Shown here: positions 3,453-10,448 of the stretch, one piece after another
Layout: the number at the start of each line of letters is the position of its first letter
Position numbering within the stretch: the first letter of the stretch is position 1
NCBI GenBank assembly: GCA_046350815.1
Contig: JAXLZO010000001.1
Location: 690,001 to 722,000 of the forward strand
Source: Candidatus Saccharimonadota bacterium
Lineage (GTDB): Bacteria; Patescibacteriota; Gracilibacteria; BD1-5; UBA2023
Direction of reading: 5' to 3'
Length of the DNA: 32,000 nucleotides
The notes under the pieces: generated by a model
The model's input: the letters and a program-made list of their open reading frames with translations, nothing else
What the model was told of the DNA's origin: nothing
The model's database searches: none
Made by a program: the position numbers and the translations under genes

Positions 3453-4100
3453 TTAATATCGAATCAGAAAATTTGGATCTGGGCAGATATATTTCATGTT
3501 CGGTACATCCTCTACCCAACAATACCCTCTGTTTTTCCATGTATCCATCTCCTCTCCAGTGAATATCTGTAAATGAAGATGTACAAACCAATTTCCATTT
3601 TCACTTGTATTTCCGAGTTTTCCGATGGATTCTCCCTGTGGTATGATGGATTGTGTATTGAGAGATTCATATGAGAGATGTCCATAGAGTGCATAGAAGA
3701 CGGTTCATCAGAGTGTGTATCGTATAATCATGTATCAGCCATAGTTGCCATCTCATTCTTCATAACCACGTTCATATACCTCTCAATGAAGTGGATTAAA
3801 AAGAGATAATGCCTCTGTTGGTGTAATATCAACACCAAGATGATAAATTCTTCCTTGCTGTTGAATATGAGTTCCCTTGAGAATATGTGATCTGTTCTCA
3901 AGATATCATCCGAGTCACCATATCTTCCCACTATTTTTCAGATGTTCACGATTGTAGTTATTCATATCATCCATGTTTCTCGGATCTACACTGAGAAAAT
4001 CCTCATTTGAGTAGTCAAATATATATGGATCTCATTGAGTTTGTTCTCCAAAAATTGGGAATATGGTAATGTTTTTTTGTAAAAGTGGATAGGGATACAT
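3453..4100 (-). CDS. M23 (LytM/lysostaphin-type) metallopeptidase domain protein
   Basis: This frame is invisible in the standard-code track because it holds 8 in-frame TGA. I scanned every codon from 3453 to 4100 and found no TAA/TAG. Motifs: YHLGVDI (HxxxD), YALYGHLS, GKLGNTSENGNWFVHLHLQI (HxH). By my hand count, 8 of its 24 Gly are TGA. Confidence 0.8.
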
Positions 4101-5187: not shown

Positions 5188-5994
5188 GGCTCTAGACCAG
5201 AAGAAAGTAACTCATATACTCTCTTCTTATGATCCCATACAGCAAAATATCAGTTCACGAACTTAAAAAGATTATTAAGTGCTTTTGTGTGGATATTGAT
5301 ACCACAAAAACAAGCGAGCTTTTGGGATATAATCGAAAGACGGTCAACCATTATTTCTCTATCTTTAGGAAAATAATCTACACGAATCGTATTGAGGCTT
5401 TCAAAGAAAAGATAGGTTGAGAAATAGAAGTAGATGAAAGCTATTTCTGAGCCAAGCGAAAAAGATGATTTGCAGGAAAACTTAAACGATGAAGATGAAC
5501 CCTCAAACAGCCAGTATTTTGACTCATCAAGAGAAAAGATGAGAATGGAAGAGTAGAAATATATACAGAGATTATTCCGAATTGCAAAGCTGTAACACTC
5601 CGCCCTATAATACAGGGAAAAGTCAGTGCCCCATAATCCAAGGAAAAGTCAGTCTAGAGAATTCTATCCTATATTCGGATGGCTGGAAAGGATACGATGG
5701 TCTCGTAGATGTATGAATCGACAAGCACTTTCGAGTCAACCATGGTACAAGTGAATTCTCACTTGGGAATGGAATTCACATCAATGGGATTGAGAACTTC
5801 TGGAGTTTTACAAAGCGCCGATTGAACAAGTTCAACGGCGTGAAAGTAAACTTTCACCTTCATCTCAAAGAATGTGAATGGAGATATACCAAAGAAAGCT
5901 TTGAACTTGAGCAGGAACTTCTTACAATGATTAAAATCTTTTATAAAAAATCCAGAAAATCTTAGATATTTCTAAAATCTTCTGGTCTAGAGCC
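5188..5994 (+). mobile_element. IS1595-family (ISXO2-like) insertion sequence, 807 bp
   Basis: Perfect 17-bp terminal inverted repeats GGCTCTAGACCAGAAGA (5188-5204 and the reverse complement at 5978-5994) are flanked by the direct repeat ACTATAT (5181-5187 and 5995-6001). The internal ORF has IS1595-type motifs. Confidence 0.8.
5229..5965 (+). pseudogene. IS1595-family transposase, disrupted by a 26-nt insertion (frameshift plus TAA at 5634-5636)
   Basis: N-terminal part: ...EKIG-G-EIEVDESYF-G-AKRKR-G-FAGKLKR-G-R-G-TLKQPVF-G-LIKR..IIQGKVSAP*. In the +2 frame from 5642: GKVSLENSILYSDGWKGYDGLVDV-G-IDKHFRVNHG..INGIENFWSFTKRRLNKFNGV..HLKECEWRY. Deleting 5616-5641 restores one continuous ORF. Confidence 0.8.
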
Positions 5995-6103: not shown

Positions 6104-6739
6104 ATGAGAAAAATATCAGAGATTATCGAGCAGGTCGTAGTGAATCAACCATTTCTTGAAGAGGCACTTGCATTTGGGTTTCTCAATCTGACCGCATTCG
6201 CCGAGTATATCCGCCCGCATGTCGAGCGAGAATCTCAGAAGTCACTCTCGGTACATGCTATTAAGATGGCACTCTCACGCATGGAGAGGCCAAAAATTAT
6301 CCGTGAAACCATATCTCATCGGTCGTTTCACAATATCACTACTCGCGTTGGCTTGTCTATCATGACTCTACTGCGTTCATCAAAAAGCGTTGAGATTGTC
6401 AGTGGTTGTATGACTGAGATGAGACGGAAAAATGATCATTTTTTTACCATGATAGAGGGTGTGCAGGAGATAGATATTATCTATGATACCTCTACTCACG
6501 AGCATCTCCTCTGTCAGATTCCAGCATCTCTTCAGCTCCTCTGTGTGCCCGACTTGGCGCTTATTTCTATTGGTCTTTCGGATATCGAGATATCTACTCC
6601 ATGACTTTTTTATTCCATTACTAAGCAACTCGCATTCTATGGGATCAATATTATTCAGGTGCTTTCGACCTATCACGAATTCGGAATTATCATAAGTGTT
6701 AAAGATCTCAAAAAGGCCGTATCGGTACTAATGGGTTAA
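6104..6739 (+). CDS. ACT-domain-containing protein (211 aa)
   Basis: MRKISEIIEQVVVNQPFLEEALAFGFLNLTAFAEYIRPHVE... continues through TGA 6602-6604 to TAA 6737-6739. The C-terminal GLFYSITKQLAFYGINIIQVLSTYHEFGIIISVKDLKKAV looks like an ACT ligand-binding fold. Family call from memory. Confidence 0.5.
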
Positions 6740-6741
6740 AT

Positions 6742-6765
6742 AAATCTCCATATCGATGGAGATTT
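6742..6765 (+). terminator. intrinsic terminator
   Basis: AAATCTCCAT-atcg-ATGGAGATTT hairpin immediately after the stop codon, followed by ATTT. Confidence 0.65.
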
Positions 6766-6799
6766 ATTTGCAAAATTGTAATACTTCTCTACTATAATA

Positions 6800-6819
6800 A
6801 CCATACCCTATGGTATGGT
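6800..6819. promoter_or_regulatory. perfect 8-4-8 palindromic operator (candidate CsoR-family box)
   Basis: ACCATACC-ctat-GGTATGGT lies directly downstream of a TATAAT hexamer (6793-6798) and 21 nt upstream of the Cys-rich micro-ORF. Confidence 0.5.
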
Positions 6820-6839
6820 ATAAATTCAATCAAAAAAAT

Positions 6840-6914
6840 ATGACAAATTGCTCATGCAATCCATGCAAGTGTACGACATGTACATGCAGTGGATGCAAAT
6901 GCTCACAGCGGTAG
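6840..6914 (+). CDS. 24-aa cysteine-rich, metallothionein-like peptide
   Basis: MTNCSCNPCKCTTCTCSGCKCSQR has 9 Cys in 24 residues in CxC/CxxC spacing. An operator lies upstream and two hairpins downstream. No obvious SD. Confidence 0.5.
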   Translation: MTNCSCNPCKCTTCTCSGCKCSQR

Positions 6915-6946
6915 TTAACCGCTAAAAAACCTCCCGGATGGGAGGT
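6907..6946 (+). terminator. two tandem hairpins after the micro-ORF (weak terminator candidate)
   Basis: AGCGGT-agtta-ACCGCT (6907-6923) and ACCTCCC-ggat-GGGAGGT (6929-6946). No T-run follows. Confidence 0.35.
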
Positions 6947-6974
6947 GCCTCTGGACAAGGCATTGACAGTATAT

Positions 6975-6992
6975 CCATACCATAGGGTTTTG
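6975..6992. promoter_or_regulatory. degenerate second copy of the operator, upstream of the csoR-like gene
   Basis: CCATACC-atag-GGTTTTG: the left arm and spacer match the reverse complement of the 6800-6819 site, and the right arm matches 5 of 8. It lies in the spacer after a TTGACA at 6963-6968. Confidence 0.3.
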
Positions 6993-7011
6993 CACTTTTT
7001 CTTTCCATCTC

Positions 7012-7287
7012 ATGTCAACCTACCAAGATCGACTTTCACTCAATATCAAAAAAGCTCAATGAACCCTCAAGAAGGTGCAAGAGATGATTGAGAGTGATCA
7101 ATACTGTGCTGATATTGCCCATCAGGTCAATGCAACTATGGGATTATTGCAGAGTGTTAATCGTGAACTTCTCAAACATCATCTCTCTTGTTGTGGAGTC
7201 AAGGCACTCTCGAGTGAGGATATTGCCAAGAAAACCGAATTTATCGATGAATTGGTACGCACATGGGATGTTGCGACACGAAAATAA
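7012..7287 (+). CDS. csoR: CsoR/RcnR-family metal-sensing transcriptional repressor (DUF156)
   Basis: MSTYQDRLSLNIKKAQ-G-TLKKVQEMIESDQYCADIAHQVNATMGLLQSVNRELLKHHLSCC... The Cys in YCAD plus H-x3-C in HHLSC match the Cu(I)-type C-H-C ligand pattern. One TGA (Gly) falls in the conserved GQ/GT position. Confidence 0.8.
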
Positions 7288-7292
7288 CCCCT

Positions 7293-7748
7293 ATGTCTCT
7301 TATGAATACCAAAAAATATTATGCACTTATTCTTCGATACCTCGGCATGAGCTTTATTACAGGAGCAGTAGCACATGGATTTTTCTCTGGATACCGATCA
7401 CTGTTTACTGCAATTTTTGGGTTAGTGTTTTTCTTGAGTGCATTATTTCTTGAAAAAGAAAGTGCTTCGGTGACTCGTTATCAGATTTTTTGGAATACTC
7501 TCCTTGCTATTGGCGTTGGTATCTTCACGGGAGGTATTCAGCATTTTCCGGATTCACCTGAGCGAAGCGTTTGGATTGTGCCACTTGGTTTCATTATTGC
7601 AGCTTTTTCTTTTTCAAGGTCGCAAATGATCCACTATACTCCTCGAGATACCAAATGGCTCACCTTCACGAGTCTGGCTGTAGGAGTGGGAAGCGTTGTA
7701 ATGTTCGCTGCGCTTGAGTCATTTTCTATTATTCCTCATAATCATTAA
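7293..7748 (+). CDS. integral membrane protein, about 4 TM segments, unknown function
   Basis: MSLMNTKKYYALILRYLGMSFITGAVAHGFFSG... has hydrophobic segments throughout and ends PHNH. It starts 6 nt after the csoR stop. The start is chosen at the first ATG after that stop; an upstream ATG at 7263 would overlap csoR. Confidence 0.6.
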   Translation: MSLMNTKKYYALILRYLGMSFITGAVAHGFFSGYRSLFTAIFGLVFFLSALFLEKESASVTRYQIFWNTLLAIGVGIFTGGIQHFPDSPERSVWIVPLGFIIAAFSFSRSQMIHYTPRDTKWLTFTSLAVGVGSVVMFAALESFSIIPHNH

Positions 7749-7757
7749 TTATCTTTT

Positions 7758-8396
7758 ATGAAATCAAATCAAACCTGTCCATGCGGTCCAGACTGCAAAT
7801 GTGGGCCAAATTGTCCGTGTGAGAAGACGGGGTCTTGTGGCACTTGTCCAACCGAATCGAAGAAATGTGCTCGAAGCTGTTGTCATTTCTGGGCGATTCT
7901 CTGTGTGATCTCTTGCGTCTTCTGTGCATGAGTCATGATCTGGGGTGCTTATGTGATGCATCGAGATCTCATCAAGATGGAGGCTCTTATGAATCCATCC
8001 AATGCGTCTCTCATGACCCAATCATCTCCTTCTAAAAATATCTCATCTACCCAAGGTCAAATGAATGATCCTATGCGTGAGCATTGTAAAATGATGCCAA
8101 ATATGATGGGCTGTGAGGTATACCGAGGAGGACAAGATGCTCGTACGATGGATCCTATGGATATGAGTATGATGCAAATGGGTCAAATGCTCGCAGGCAA
8201 AATGGGAGATGATCTCGATCGTGCCTTTATCGAGGGTATGATTCCACATCATCAGGCAGCCGTTGATATGGCTCGCTATCTCACTGGCGCAAAACATCCA
8301 GAGCTTCAGAAAATGGGGCAAGATATCATCGCAGCTCAGTCCAAAGAAATCGATCAAATGAAAAAGTGGCAAGCTGAATGGGGATACGCAAAATAA
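7758..8396 (+). CDS. fusion protein: N-terminal Cys-rich (metallothionein-like) segment, one TM helix, Met-rich linker, C-terminal DUF305 domain
   Basis: MKSNQTCPCGPDCKCGPNCPCEKTGSCGTCP..CCHFWAILCVISCVFCA-G-VMIWGAYVM..MMPNMMGCE..MDPMDMSMMQMGQM..FIEGMIPHHQAAVDMARYL..AAQSKEIDQMKKW. The 7758 piece and ORF 7935-8396 are in one frame, joined by TGA 7929-7931. Confidence 0.75.
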
Positions 8397-8416
8397 AAAC
8401 TCACTAGTGAGTTTTT
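8395..8416. terminator. bidirectional intrinsic terminator
   Basis: AAAAACTCAC-ta-GTGAGTTTTT. The stop codon of the convergent gene (8415-8417) overlaps its right arm. Confidence 0.65.
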
Positions 8417-9293
8417 ATTTTCTTTGCTGGAGGTATCCGAGATATCTCTGCCACTGATGGATTGGCATCATTGCAAGCTCTATGTGATAGGTTTCTGGTC
8501 TGATGTACTTTACTTGACGAGCAATATCGATAAATCTGCTTAGGTCATTATAAAATCTCTGACGGTCTGCGCTACTATATCCTTCGATACGTTTATAGAA
8601 TGCATATCTTTGGTCATTTACTATTCACATTTGTACATAGGCTCGCTTGAGTCACTCAGAGAAAAATGCAAGGATTTCTTCTTGTAGGTCATCATAGACA
8701 CAGACCTCATACATAGACCTACCTCATCATTTGCCGTAGTAGTCCATGCCGATGATATGATTGCGAAAATGTGTGAGCTCATGAGTAGTGGTAGAGCTGG
8801 TATCATGTCCCGAGCAGTTGACACAAACAGGGATCTCTTTCCCATCAAAGTGGAGCACTTTGTAAAAACCACTTGCACGATCTTCTTGGGAGAACTGCTC
8901 TTTCCTCTTCGCAAACTTGGCAAAGAGGAGATCTTGCATATTTGAAAACTCAATGATGAGAACTGGTCAATGATTTTTGATATCCATGGTGCCGACAAAC
9001 TTTTCTGGTCGAAATCCAAAGAGTCGCCCTACTTGTACCTGAGATGATTCGGCTCCATGTTTTTTCAAGAAATAAGATATCCCATCTGAATATCTCTGTA
9101 TTCGATGAAATGCTTGGATAAAATACCCATGGAGCACCTCGTCGACTTGTGAGAGGACTTTTTGTTTGATAGCGAGTATATCATAGTTTTCTTTTCATGC
9201 GAGTATCTTTTCCGCTGATTGGATTGCTTCGGATCCGTTCTGGATAGACGCAACATAGTCATTTCGCTGCTGTTCGTATGTTGATTTGTTCAT
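8415..9293 (-). CDS. HExxH-motif protein (putative zinc metallopeptidase), 292 aa
   Basis: One frame runs from ATG 9291-9293 to TAA 8415-8417 through 7 TGA, checked block by block. Motif: CVNCSGHDTSSTTTHELTHFRNHI. No signal peptide. Family not recognised. Confidence 0.55.
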
Positions 9294-9413: not shown

Positions 9414-10448
9414 ATGGAAAATATTATTTCTCCTGATGATGACTGAAACATATCAAAAGACCAGTATGTAAAAATATCATTGATGAATACTGGGGTGAGA
9501 GTATCGAAGATTTTGAATATGACTCACTTTTTAGAGATTCGAAATAATCCAGAATCATTTGAAAAATGGATCCAAGAAATGAACTATAAGACTTTTATTC
9601 ATTTGCTTATTCAATGGAATGGTATATTACGTGGATCCAAAAAAATAGATCGAGATATTGATGGGGTAAATGTCGCTGTTGCTTCTTGGGTTCCACCGAG
9701 TGAGCATATAAAATCAAAAATACTCAGAAAGACATTTGATGTAGTAAAAAAACTAGAAAATCCAAACGATAGAGCAGACTTGCTAACATATATGCTCCAG
9801 TTTCTTCATATATTCAGCGATGGTAATGGGAGGCTTGGTCGGTTTATTCATTCATTGCTAGATGGTACGAATAATCTCAATGCTCAGTATCTTGCTAAGA
9901 TATTAGATCATAATATGGAGGGTAACGATGGCTATCGGGTTTATAAACATACAAAACATATAAATCCTGAAAAATATTATCCATATTTTTCAATATTCGT
10001 GAACTCTCTCTTATTCGAAGAGAGAGAATACCAAACTAAGCCCTGAGTTCCATATTTAAATTTAGATGGAATTTGGAATCAAAAAATTGCTCGTGATTGG
10101 GAAGAAAAATCACCAAAATTTGCATCAAGAGTTATTCAAATCCTTGCTGAAATGGATGAACAATCTGGGGGATCGGATAAATTTAATGGGGTAGTTTTGT
10201 TAAAATTTCTGATCGAAAAATGACTCGATTCTTCTCGTTTTATAGATAATTCAAATGTAAGTTTTATTCGATTAGTGGTAGATGAAGAATTTTTATTGTC
10301 ACTTTCCGGAGAAGATATTGCTCGATTGTATACTATTCATGATGATGTAAAATTATTTTTACTTGATCGACTGATAGATGTCTATATGTCACCTGATGAG
10401 TACAGACTTTCGAATGGGGTACTCTTACGAGATATCATGAGAATATAA
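9414..10448 (+). CDS. Fic/DOC-family protein (putative AMPylase/NMP-transferase), 344 aa
   Basis: Canonical Fic motif HIFSDGNGRLGRF (HxFx[DE]GNGRxxR). The ORF runs from ATG 9414 through 3 TGA (9444, 10044, 10221) to TAA 10446-10448, verified codon by codon. Confidence 0.85.

Follow-up and report, generated by a model that had tools for sequence, protein, structure and literature searches.

The closest described precedent, in function and in logic, for the gene analysed here is MymT of Mycobacterium tuberculosis, a small and originally unannotated Cys-rich open reading frame (ORF) whose product binds Cu(I) (PMC7558416). RicR, a paralog of CsoR, represses mymT through a palindrome in its promoter and also regulates its own synthesis (PMC3944814). 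The fungal family-8 Cu-metallothioneins of Neurospora crassa and Agaricus bisporus, with 26 residues and 7 Cys, were once deemed the shortest metallothioneins (PMC4755600), and copZ genes are the classic targets of CsoR (PMC3902906). We analysed a stretch of 32 kb (the window) from the Gracilibacteria contig JAXLZO010000001.1, in which a micro-gene on the plus strand (6840–6914, ATG to TAG) encodes the 24-residue, metallothionein-like peptide MTNCSCNPCKCTTCTCSGCKCSQR. In the reading that we favour and hold to be probable, the peptide would act as a metallothionein-like cytoplasmic Cu(I) buffer, and the micro-ORF would open a copper-stress operon under the control of CsoR.

The regulatory logic of MymT and RicR is the same as that proposed for the micro-ORF. 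MymT has a mass of 4.9 kDa (~53 residues) and is confined to pathogenic mycobacteria, whereas the Gracilibacteria peptide is half that size, is built from regular CxC-xx repeats, is encoded immediately upstream of the gene for its own repressor and belongs to a code-25 lineage of the candidate phyla radiation (CPR). No relationship between the two was detected, as judged by family and catalogue searches only. The initial annotation had regarded a CsoR-controlled metallothionein as new; the principle is in fact known from RicR and MymT (PMC3944814), and what is new is the family, the size, the modular use and the lineage. In size and chemistry, the fungal family-8 proteins come closest, having CxC motifs, no aromatic residues and Cu-thionein character in common with the peptide (24 residues, 8 Cys), but they are eukaryotic. 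Their Cys spacing, which we take to be CxC-x5-CxC-x3-CxC-x2-C, differs from the CxC-x2-CxC-x2-CxC-x2-CxC of the peptide. The SmtA/BmtA proteins (PF02069) resemble it as small, Cys-rich bacterial metal buffers; they differ in being Zn-finger-like, in length (~55 residues), in their His ligands, in their metals (Zn/Cd) and in their control by SmtB/ArsR-type repressors, and none of the 20 peptides searched matched PF02069 even at E ≤ 10. CopZ has a ferredoxin fold of ~70 residues with one MxCxxC site for one Cu(I), whereas the peptide, with eight Cys, is too short to fold metal-free. A CopZ-type HMA gene nevertheless takes the same slot as the micro-ORF, between the same operator and csoR, in two related loci (L023 and L024).

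Eight of the 24 residues of the peptide are Cys (33%), one fewer than the nine counted in the initial annotation, and they form four CxC pairs separated by two-residue spacers (C4,C6 / C9,C11 / C14,C16 / C19,C21). The initial annotation had also considered such a richness in Cys improbable by chance, and this is borne out. The micro-ORF has the highest Cys fraction among the 996 ATG-started ORFs of at least 20 residues in the window, where the long ORFs and real genes contain on average 1.0% Cys; the binomial probability of at least 8 Cys in 24 residues is ~8e-11 against the gene background and ~2e-7 against the six-frame background. There is no aromatic residue in the window peptide, and its relatives contain an occasional Tyr or His (L006, L008, L010, L021). 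With a mass below 10 kDa (24 residues; 24–37 in the relatives), a high Cys content in CxC pairs and few aromatic residues, the peptide agrees with the operational definition of a metallothionein in every point that a sequence can address; it appears to stand outside every described metallothionein sequence family. The ORF ends 97 nt upstream of csoR. An in-frame ATG at 6810 was considered as an alternative start; in the close relative L030 a stop immediately ahead of the MTNC start interrupts the upstream reading, and the palindrome of L031 has its ATGs in a different frame. Close relatives thus do not keep ATG 6810 as a start, and the gene start is placed at 6840. A Met-rich reading in the +2 frame (MLMQSMQ...) was rejected as well, being broken by stops in relatives. 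None of the 24 genes of the window is preceded by a Shine–Dalgarno-like sequence, the regions upstream of the start codons being merely A/T-rich; its absence from the micro-ORF is therefore uninformative, and we dropped it as an argument against translation. Modification or export genes, as would accompany a ribosomally synthesised and post-translationally modified peptide or bacteriocin precursor, were not seen among the neighbours examined.

The window is coded in genetic code 25 (TGA = Gly), the Gracilibacteria type: ORFs of at least 100 residues total 19,899 residues with table 25 and 4,169 with table 11. All nearest relatives of the csoR gene come from Candidatus Gracilibacteria metagenome-assembled genomes, which together with the code upholds the assignment to a CPR bacterium made at the outset and narrows it to Gracilibacteria. 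The comparison set consisted of 29 species-level (GTDB) Gracilibacteria loci with a close CsoR homologue, scanned under code 25. A Cys-rich ORF of 24–37 residues lies on the same strand, 80–190 nt upstream of csoR, in 16 of them. It is also found in five contigs from closer relatives (CsoR 88–93% identical; among L030, L031, L033, L034, L035 and L036), while in a sixth (L037) only its 3′ end is present. The substitutions in these closer relatives (K10T/T12A/K20R and K10E) fall on non-Cys positions, apart from one C-terminal rearrangement of CKCSQR to CKSCGK that leaves the total at 8 Cys. Across the family, six aligned Cys columns contain Cys in all 17 sequences, and their codons swap freely between TGC and TGT (e.g. 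10/7, 9/8 and 13/4 per column; 88 TGC and 65 TGT overall). Close pairs give dN/dS (nonsynonymous over synonymous divergence) values of 0.03/0.86 (L002–L003), 0.02/0.25 (L004–L011), 0.02/0.24 (L005–L019) and 0.11/0.64 (L001–L007); these ratios of ~0.03–0.2 indicate strong purifying selection on the micro-ORF. The in-frame TGA of L001 aligns with Gly codons (GGA or GGT) elsewhere, as code 25 predicts. Changes in length consist of whole added CxCxx units (L006, L008, L010, L021), in a manner that resembles metallothionein evolution, and each of the five other frames hits stops in some relatives. The initial annotation had staked its case on the ORF being neither absent nor disrupted in relatives; with 16 of the 29 loci and five further contigs retaining it, with invariant Cys columns and under purifying selection, 6840–6914 is almost certainly a real gene.

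The family is nearly invisible in public catalogues. An exact look-up of ten versions of the peptide in ~15 billion catalogued proteins returned only an over-extended, unnamed 51-residue form from L021, and a search with this form found itself as the sole match. A phmmer search with the 34-residue extended ORF against 1.84 billion representative proteins yielded only two unrelated repetitive proteins. Among the matches listed from a metagenome scan with the pattern ATGA-N5-14-(TGY NNN TGY N6)x2-TGY NNN TGY, (TGC)n/(TGT)n poly-Cys microsatellites dominate and no family members occur. No literature linking metallothioneins with CPR lineages was found. The earlier remark that gene callers usually miss bacterial metallothioneins of this size is in keeping with the single form catalogued, and annotation of code-25 genomes systematically passes over genes of fewer than 30 codons.

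The upstream region of the micro-ORF has a promoter-like architecture, much as first described. A −10 box TATAAT (6793–6798, +) is separated by a single base (A6799) from the perfect 8-4-8 palindrome ACCATACC-CTAT-GGTATGGT (6800–6819, hereafter O1), the presumed CsoR site over the transcription start region. A −35-like TTGCAA lies at 6768–6773 (+), with a spacer to the −10 box of 19 nt in the window and 16–17 nt in most relatives. Over 30 loci, a TTTGCttt block is conserved 24–27 nt upstream of the operator, which in most of them has a TATAxT box directly next to it. The TATAxT box and the upstream TTGCtt block read as a sigma-70-type promoter whose start region would lie under the motif. The O1 palindrome is the sole match in the window at up to three mismatches (chance expectation 0.05). 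The motif ACCATACC-N4-GGT, the only non-coding motif that these loci conserve strongly, is present once per locus in 28 of the 29 loci and in the window, with just 2 one-mismatch matches off target in 236 kb. Whichever gene comes first in the csoR operon (micro-ORF, CopZ-like HMA gene or csoR), the motif stands in front of it without exception; in the 13 loci that lack the micro-ORF it stands before csoR or (L023, L024) before the CopZ-like HMA gene preceding csoR. This placement would match what is expected of an autoregulated CsoR operator. The central four bases switch orientation between loci, which fits a symmetric protein-binding site. CsoR operators are described as a TAC/GTA dyad around C/G runs (PMC3902906), and such a dyad is present in O1 as ATACC-CTAT-GGTAT within the 8-4-8 palindrome. 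The resemblance of the ATACC...GGTAT repeat to a CsoR operator, pointed out in the initial annotation, is thus supported by the dyad and by conservation in 28 of 29 loci, with binding itself being predicted. We regard it as very probable from these comparisons that the palindrome would be the operator through which CsoR controls its own, copper-responsive operon, with the micro-ORF as the first gene.

The gene that follows, csoR (7012–7287, +), encodes a 91-residue repressor that belongs, as first supposed, to the CsoR family (PF02583, E = 1.9e-17). When aligned with M. tuberculosis CsoR (2hh7) and with other CsoR structures, its C32, H57 and C61 correspond to C36, H61 and C65 of the former, and the repressor keeps the Cys-His-Cys ligand triad for Cu(I). 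The related loci contain genes for CopA-type ATPase, HMA, CusB-like, CDF, DsbA-like, MauE-like and DUF305 proteins. Within ±4 kb, none of the 17 micro-ORF loci has an HMA or CopA gene, as against 5 of the 13 loci without the micro-ORF (one-sided Fisher P ~0.009, phylogeny ignored). No CopA or HMA gene was found in the 32-kb window.

Farther downstream, a gene (7758–8396, +) encodes a protein of 212 residues with a Cys-rich N-terminus (CPCGPDCKCGPNCPC...), one transmembrane (TM) helix and a CopM-like DUF305 domain (PF03713, E = 3.1e-17). The same domain makes up CopM, a resistance protein that binds copper (PMC4335983). CopM of Synechocystis has this domain in common with the 212-residue protein, so that it compares with a partner of the peptide and not with the peptide itself. 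In Gracilibacteria the domain is extended by a membrane anchor and, on the cytoplasmic side, by a Cys-rich N-terminal module; the regulator of CopM is the two-component system CopRS and not CsoR. The likeness of the peptide to this N-terminus, pointed out at the outset, is real in kind, both being arrays of CxC pairs, but the spacers have three residues in the DUF305 protein and two in the peptide. In L012, L024 and L027, the TM-DUF305 proteins open with the same CxCxxCxCxxCxC array (e.g. MNKTPHCTCENCKCDPCECKN and ECTCENCNCNPCTC) as micro-ORFs such as KCTCNPCTCETCSC and TPCTCENCSYKNCTCENC. Variant Cys-rich N-termini are present in L018, L019 and L028, and other orthologues have no such module. 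The Cys array thus appears to be used as a protein module, beyond a run of codons. A MauE-family membrane protein in some of the loci (L004:4286–4960; L012, L014, L016, L020) has an N-terminal CC motif and a Met/Cys-rich C-terminal tail (…HCESMPNMGGCEAY); in the window protein the tail motif recurs immediately ahead of DUF305 (…EHCKMMPNMMGCEVY), and it looks like a shared extracytoplasmic copper-binding motif.

From these elements a mechanism can be proposed. At low copper, tetrameric apo-CsoR would occupy ACCATACC-N4-GGTATGGT, as position and conservation of the site suggest; because the site starts 1–2 nt past the −10 box and covers the transcription start, RNA polymerase would be blocked. 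Release from DNA upon binding of Cu(I) is established behaviour in the CsoR family, and here Cu(I) would bind Cys32-His57-Cys61 and so free the operator. The peptide would be made after derepression, its four CxC pairs wrapping several Cu(I) in a thiolate cluster; by analogy with the 7-Cys fungal Cu-metallothioneins and MymT, we estimate a load of ~4–6 Cu(I). It would then keep the copper or pass it to the co-regulated membrane proteins, including the CopM-like DUF305 protein with its cytoplasmic Cys N-terminus. A Cu(I)-binding, metallothionein-like function, as sink or as chaperone, appears probable under a narrow definition and quite likely under a broad one.

The region between micro-ORF and csoR contains further elements. 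A degenerate operator copy, TCCATACCATAGGGTTTTGC (S2, 6974–6993), is in reverse orientation relative to O1. The two have a 14-nt common core (6975–6988 versus 6805–6818, reversed) that is 100% complementary. The copy noticed in the initial annotation ahead of the csoR-like gene is accordingly present, 174 nt from O1 centre to centre and 18 nt before the csoR start. DNA looping between O1 and S2 was considered; as the centre distances (171–215 bp) show no consistent helical phase, no looping is claimed. A block containing CATAGGG is kept ahead of csoR in all micro-ORF loci, and in most loci this second conserved block combines the operator core CATAGGG(T) with a TATAAT box. It is probably an internal promoter, possibly modulated by CsoR. 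In the window, a TTGACA (6963–6968, +) is a possible −35 of an internal csoR promoter and is followed by no convincing −10. The form of the element varies between clades: L003 (3960–3995), L004, L011, L014, L016, L019 and L020 carry a pre-csoR inverted repeat, TATAyTGAAA-N10-TTTCAATATA, that is centred on the operator core CATAGGGT and has a TATAAT box at its 3′ end, while the clade of the window has a different version, TCCATACCATAGGGTTTTGC after TTGACA.

Between the stop codon and this element the transcript is predicted to fold repeatedly. A short stem (AGCGG/CCGCT; 6907–6923, +) whose loop contains the stop codon appears in the minimum free energy (MFE) folds of the window and L030, and is restricted to the clade of the window. 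A GC-rich hairpin ACCTCCC-GGAT-GGGAGGT (6929–6946, +) follows the stop codon, with an A-run 5′ and no U-run 3′, and next to it is a second short hairpin GCCT-CTGGACA-AGGC (6947–6961, +), for which relatives have different stems (ACTTT/AAAGT, TACCT/AGGTA). A hairpin begins 3–17 nt past the stop codon of the micro-ORF in all 19 loci inspected (the window and 18 others), formed by ~8 different self-complementary stems, and the second short hairpin usually comes next. Only on the minus strand, where there is no converging gene, is the post-stop hairpin called an intrinsic terminator, and canonical terminators with U-tracts exist elsewhere in the window. On the coding strand it is not a canonical terminator; it may act as a partial terminator, stabilise the 3′ end or be part of an attenuator. 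RNAalifold found no consensus structure from the ORF stop to the csoR start, the hairpin stems being misaligned, and Rfam 15 gave nothing significant over 6500–7300 (Phe_leader, 22 bits against a gathering cut-off of 55, E = 0.42). In L020, a tRNA-Cys(GCA) gene (3910–3983, +) lies between the micro-ORF and csoR, the only tRNA at this position in any locus; the L020 micro-ORF is the most Cys-rich, with 11 Cys in 28 residues.

Several other explanations were weighed. That 6840–6914 is no gene, and instead an ORF that a CATGCA-rich DNA repeat produced by chance, or an element that acts only as DNA, could appeal to the ATGCA/CATGCA strings repeated inside it and to the fact that no gene caller has recorded it. 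Sixteen species nevertheless conserve the ORF, with invariant Cys codons, TGT/TGC swaps and low dN/dS, its length varies by whole CxCxx units and the other frames contain stops. This explanation is effectively refuted by the conservation data, and we give it practically no credence. Should the ORF be translated mainly as a regulatory leader peptide, ribosome transit over its eight Cys codons would report the supply of Cys-tRNA, set the hairpins and so tune the expression of csoR and of the genes behind it. In size and position the micro-ORF resembles typical leader peptides, a hairpin with covarying stems follows the stop in 19 of 19 loci with a second one next to it, and the intergenic region of L020 holds a tRNA-Cys gene. 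Yet there is no 3′ U-tract on the coding strand, although canonical U-tract terminators exist in the window, and neither the MFE folds nor RNAalifold (with a poor alignment in the stem region) show an alternative antiterminator pairing. The downstream genes concern copper and not cysteine supply, and a promoter-like and operator-like element is conserved between the hairpins and csoR. A leader that counts codons needs neither the exact CxC-xx spacing that is kept here nor the reuse of the array as a domain of DUF305 proteins, and we consider a mainly regulatory role improbable.

The remaining two explanations accept the peptide as a binder and differ over its ligand or its task. CsoR/RcnR members elsewhere respond to Ni (as InrS does), to formaldehyde or to persulfide, the PDB matches of the regulator include InrS, and some related loci have a CDF (Zn/Co/Cd) transporter, so that the peptide might bind Zn, Cd or Ag, or serve as a thiol redox or persulfide buffer under a regulator that senses something other than Cu(I). 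Against this stand the Cu(I) Cys-His-Cys set of the regulator, which has neither the His-rich Ni set nor the Cys-only persulfide set, the copper-type neighbours (HMA, CopA, CusB-like, CopM-like DUF305) and the CxC arrays without His, which favour Cu(I) clusters; we judge a different ligand very improbable. A task as copper chaperone would make the peptide a donor to CsoR (giving faster derepression), or, for disposal of the copper, to the DUF305 N-terminus or the DUF6962-like membrane protein encoded beside csoR, and thereby a replacement for CopZ where a lineage has none. CopZ hands Cu(I) to CopY in Enterococcus. In L023 and L024 a CopZ-like HMA gene sits in the exact slot of the micro-ORF (operator, first gene, csoR), no sampled locus combines the micro-ORF with an HMA or CopA gene, the Cys module is also fused to TM-DUF305 proteins, and the 32-kb window is devoid of CopA and HMA genes. 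However, eight Cys in CxC arrays are typical of multi-copper clusters, whereas chaperones use a single CxxC, and CopA could lie elsewhere in the genome. The chaperone proposal departs from that of a Cu(I) buffer only in the fate of the bound copper, and we think it unlikely, if conceivable.

A number of observations weigh against the peptide as a CsoR-controlled Cu(I) buffer. Searches of Pfam with the 20 peptides returned no metallothionein family above threshold; the best match, Metallothio_Euk (PF12749; E = 0.25 and 11.8 bits, where the gathering score is 22), is compositional, and because only this sub-threshold match links the peptide to eukaryotic metallothioneins we treat its likeness to the fungal proteins as convergent and not homologous. 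NCBIfam and PDB gave no match to the peptide. The gene is missing from 13 of the 29 related loci, and the micro-ORF is therefore dispensable. The mutual exclusion with HMA and CopA genes covers ±4 kb only, phylogeny being uncorrected. The dyad of O1 is TAC-N6-GTA (N11 to the outer GTA), as compared with TAC-N9-GTA in type-2 CsoR sites, and its C/G runs are shorter. A generic promoter scan calls no promoter at the micro-ORF, where the −35/−10 spacing in the window is 19 nt. Finally, the post-stop hairpins and the pre-csoR element leave room for a regulatory role at the RNA level.

The micro-ORF unit is bordered on its left by an ACT-domain gene (ACT_7; 6104–6739, +). A perfect 14-4-14 hairpin, AAATAAATCTCCAT-atcg-ATGGAGATTTATTT (6738–6769, +; 100% complementary), terminates this gene and forms the left edge of the unit. 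On the other side, csoR is followed by a gene for a membrane protein of 151 residues with a sub-threshold DUF6962 match (7293–7748, +), which is kept beside csoR in many relatives. The GC content of the window is 39%. In-frame TGA codons occur at 6602–6604 in the ACT-domain gene and, read as Gly, at 7060–7062 in csoR and 7929–7931 in the DUF305 gene; code-11 gene calls break all three genes into pieces. Public catalogues contain CsoR fragments of 67 residues because such calls cut csoR at its in-frame TGA.

Further out, a frameshift divides an IS1595-family (ISXO2-like) transposase gene (5229–5965, +) into a pair of overlapping ORFs, whose joined product matches PF12762 (9.6e-23). A comparable transposase gene lies close to the csoR locus of L017 (3893–4612, minus strand). 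Transposases near csoR loci hint that these copper loci belong to regions that are mobile or variable. The copper locus is directly followed by a gene for a Fic/DOC-domain protein (9414–10448, +) and, beside it, one for a protein of 292 residues without a Pfam match (8415–9293, −). The same Fic gene is also found near the copper locus of the close relative L030.

Few bacterial metallothionein families are known (SmtA/BmtA and MymT are those met in the literature), and the peptide would represent a third, with no relationship to either and a length close to that of the shortest metallothioneins described. A family in at least 16 species that has left one over-extended, unnamed version among ~15 billion catalogued proteins also marks a blind spot of annotation. 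The locus yields a defined operator, ACCATACC-N4-GGTATGGT, and a promoter architecture for Gracilibacteria, with the pattern ACCATACCNNNNGGT for regulon prediction. A bolder scheme, which we offer as speculation and think rather doubtful, is a modular, thiolate-only handling of copper without CopZ and CopA, in which the free peptide would relay Cu(I) to the anchored DUF305 module and its partner, and from there to an extracellular copper sponge, while the micro-ORF and its hairpins would double as a leader for Cys supply. If true, the CxC-xx module of 6–8 Cys would be at once the shortest free metallothionein known (24–37 residues) and a cytoplasmic N-terminal domain of DUF305 proteins. Gracilibacteria are an uncultured, genome-reduced CPR group whose metal physiology is almost undescribed, and in them the Cys module may take the place of CopZ and work together with membrane proteins of the CopM-like type.

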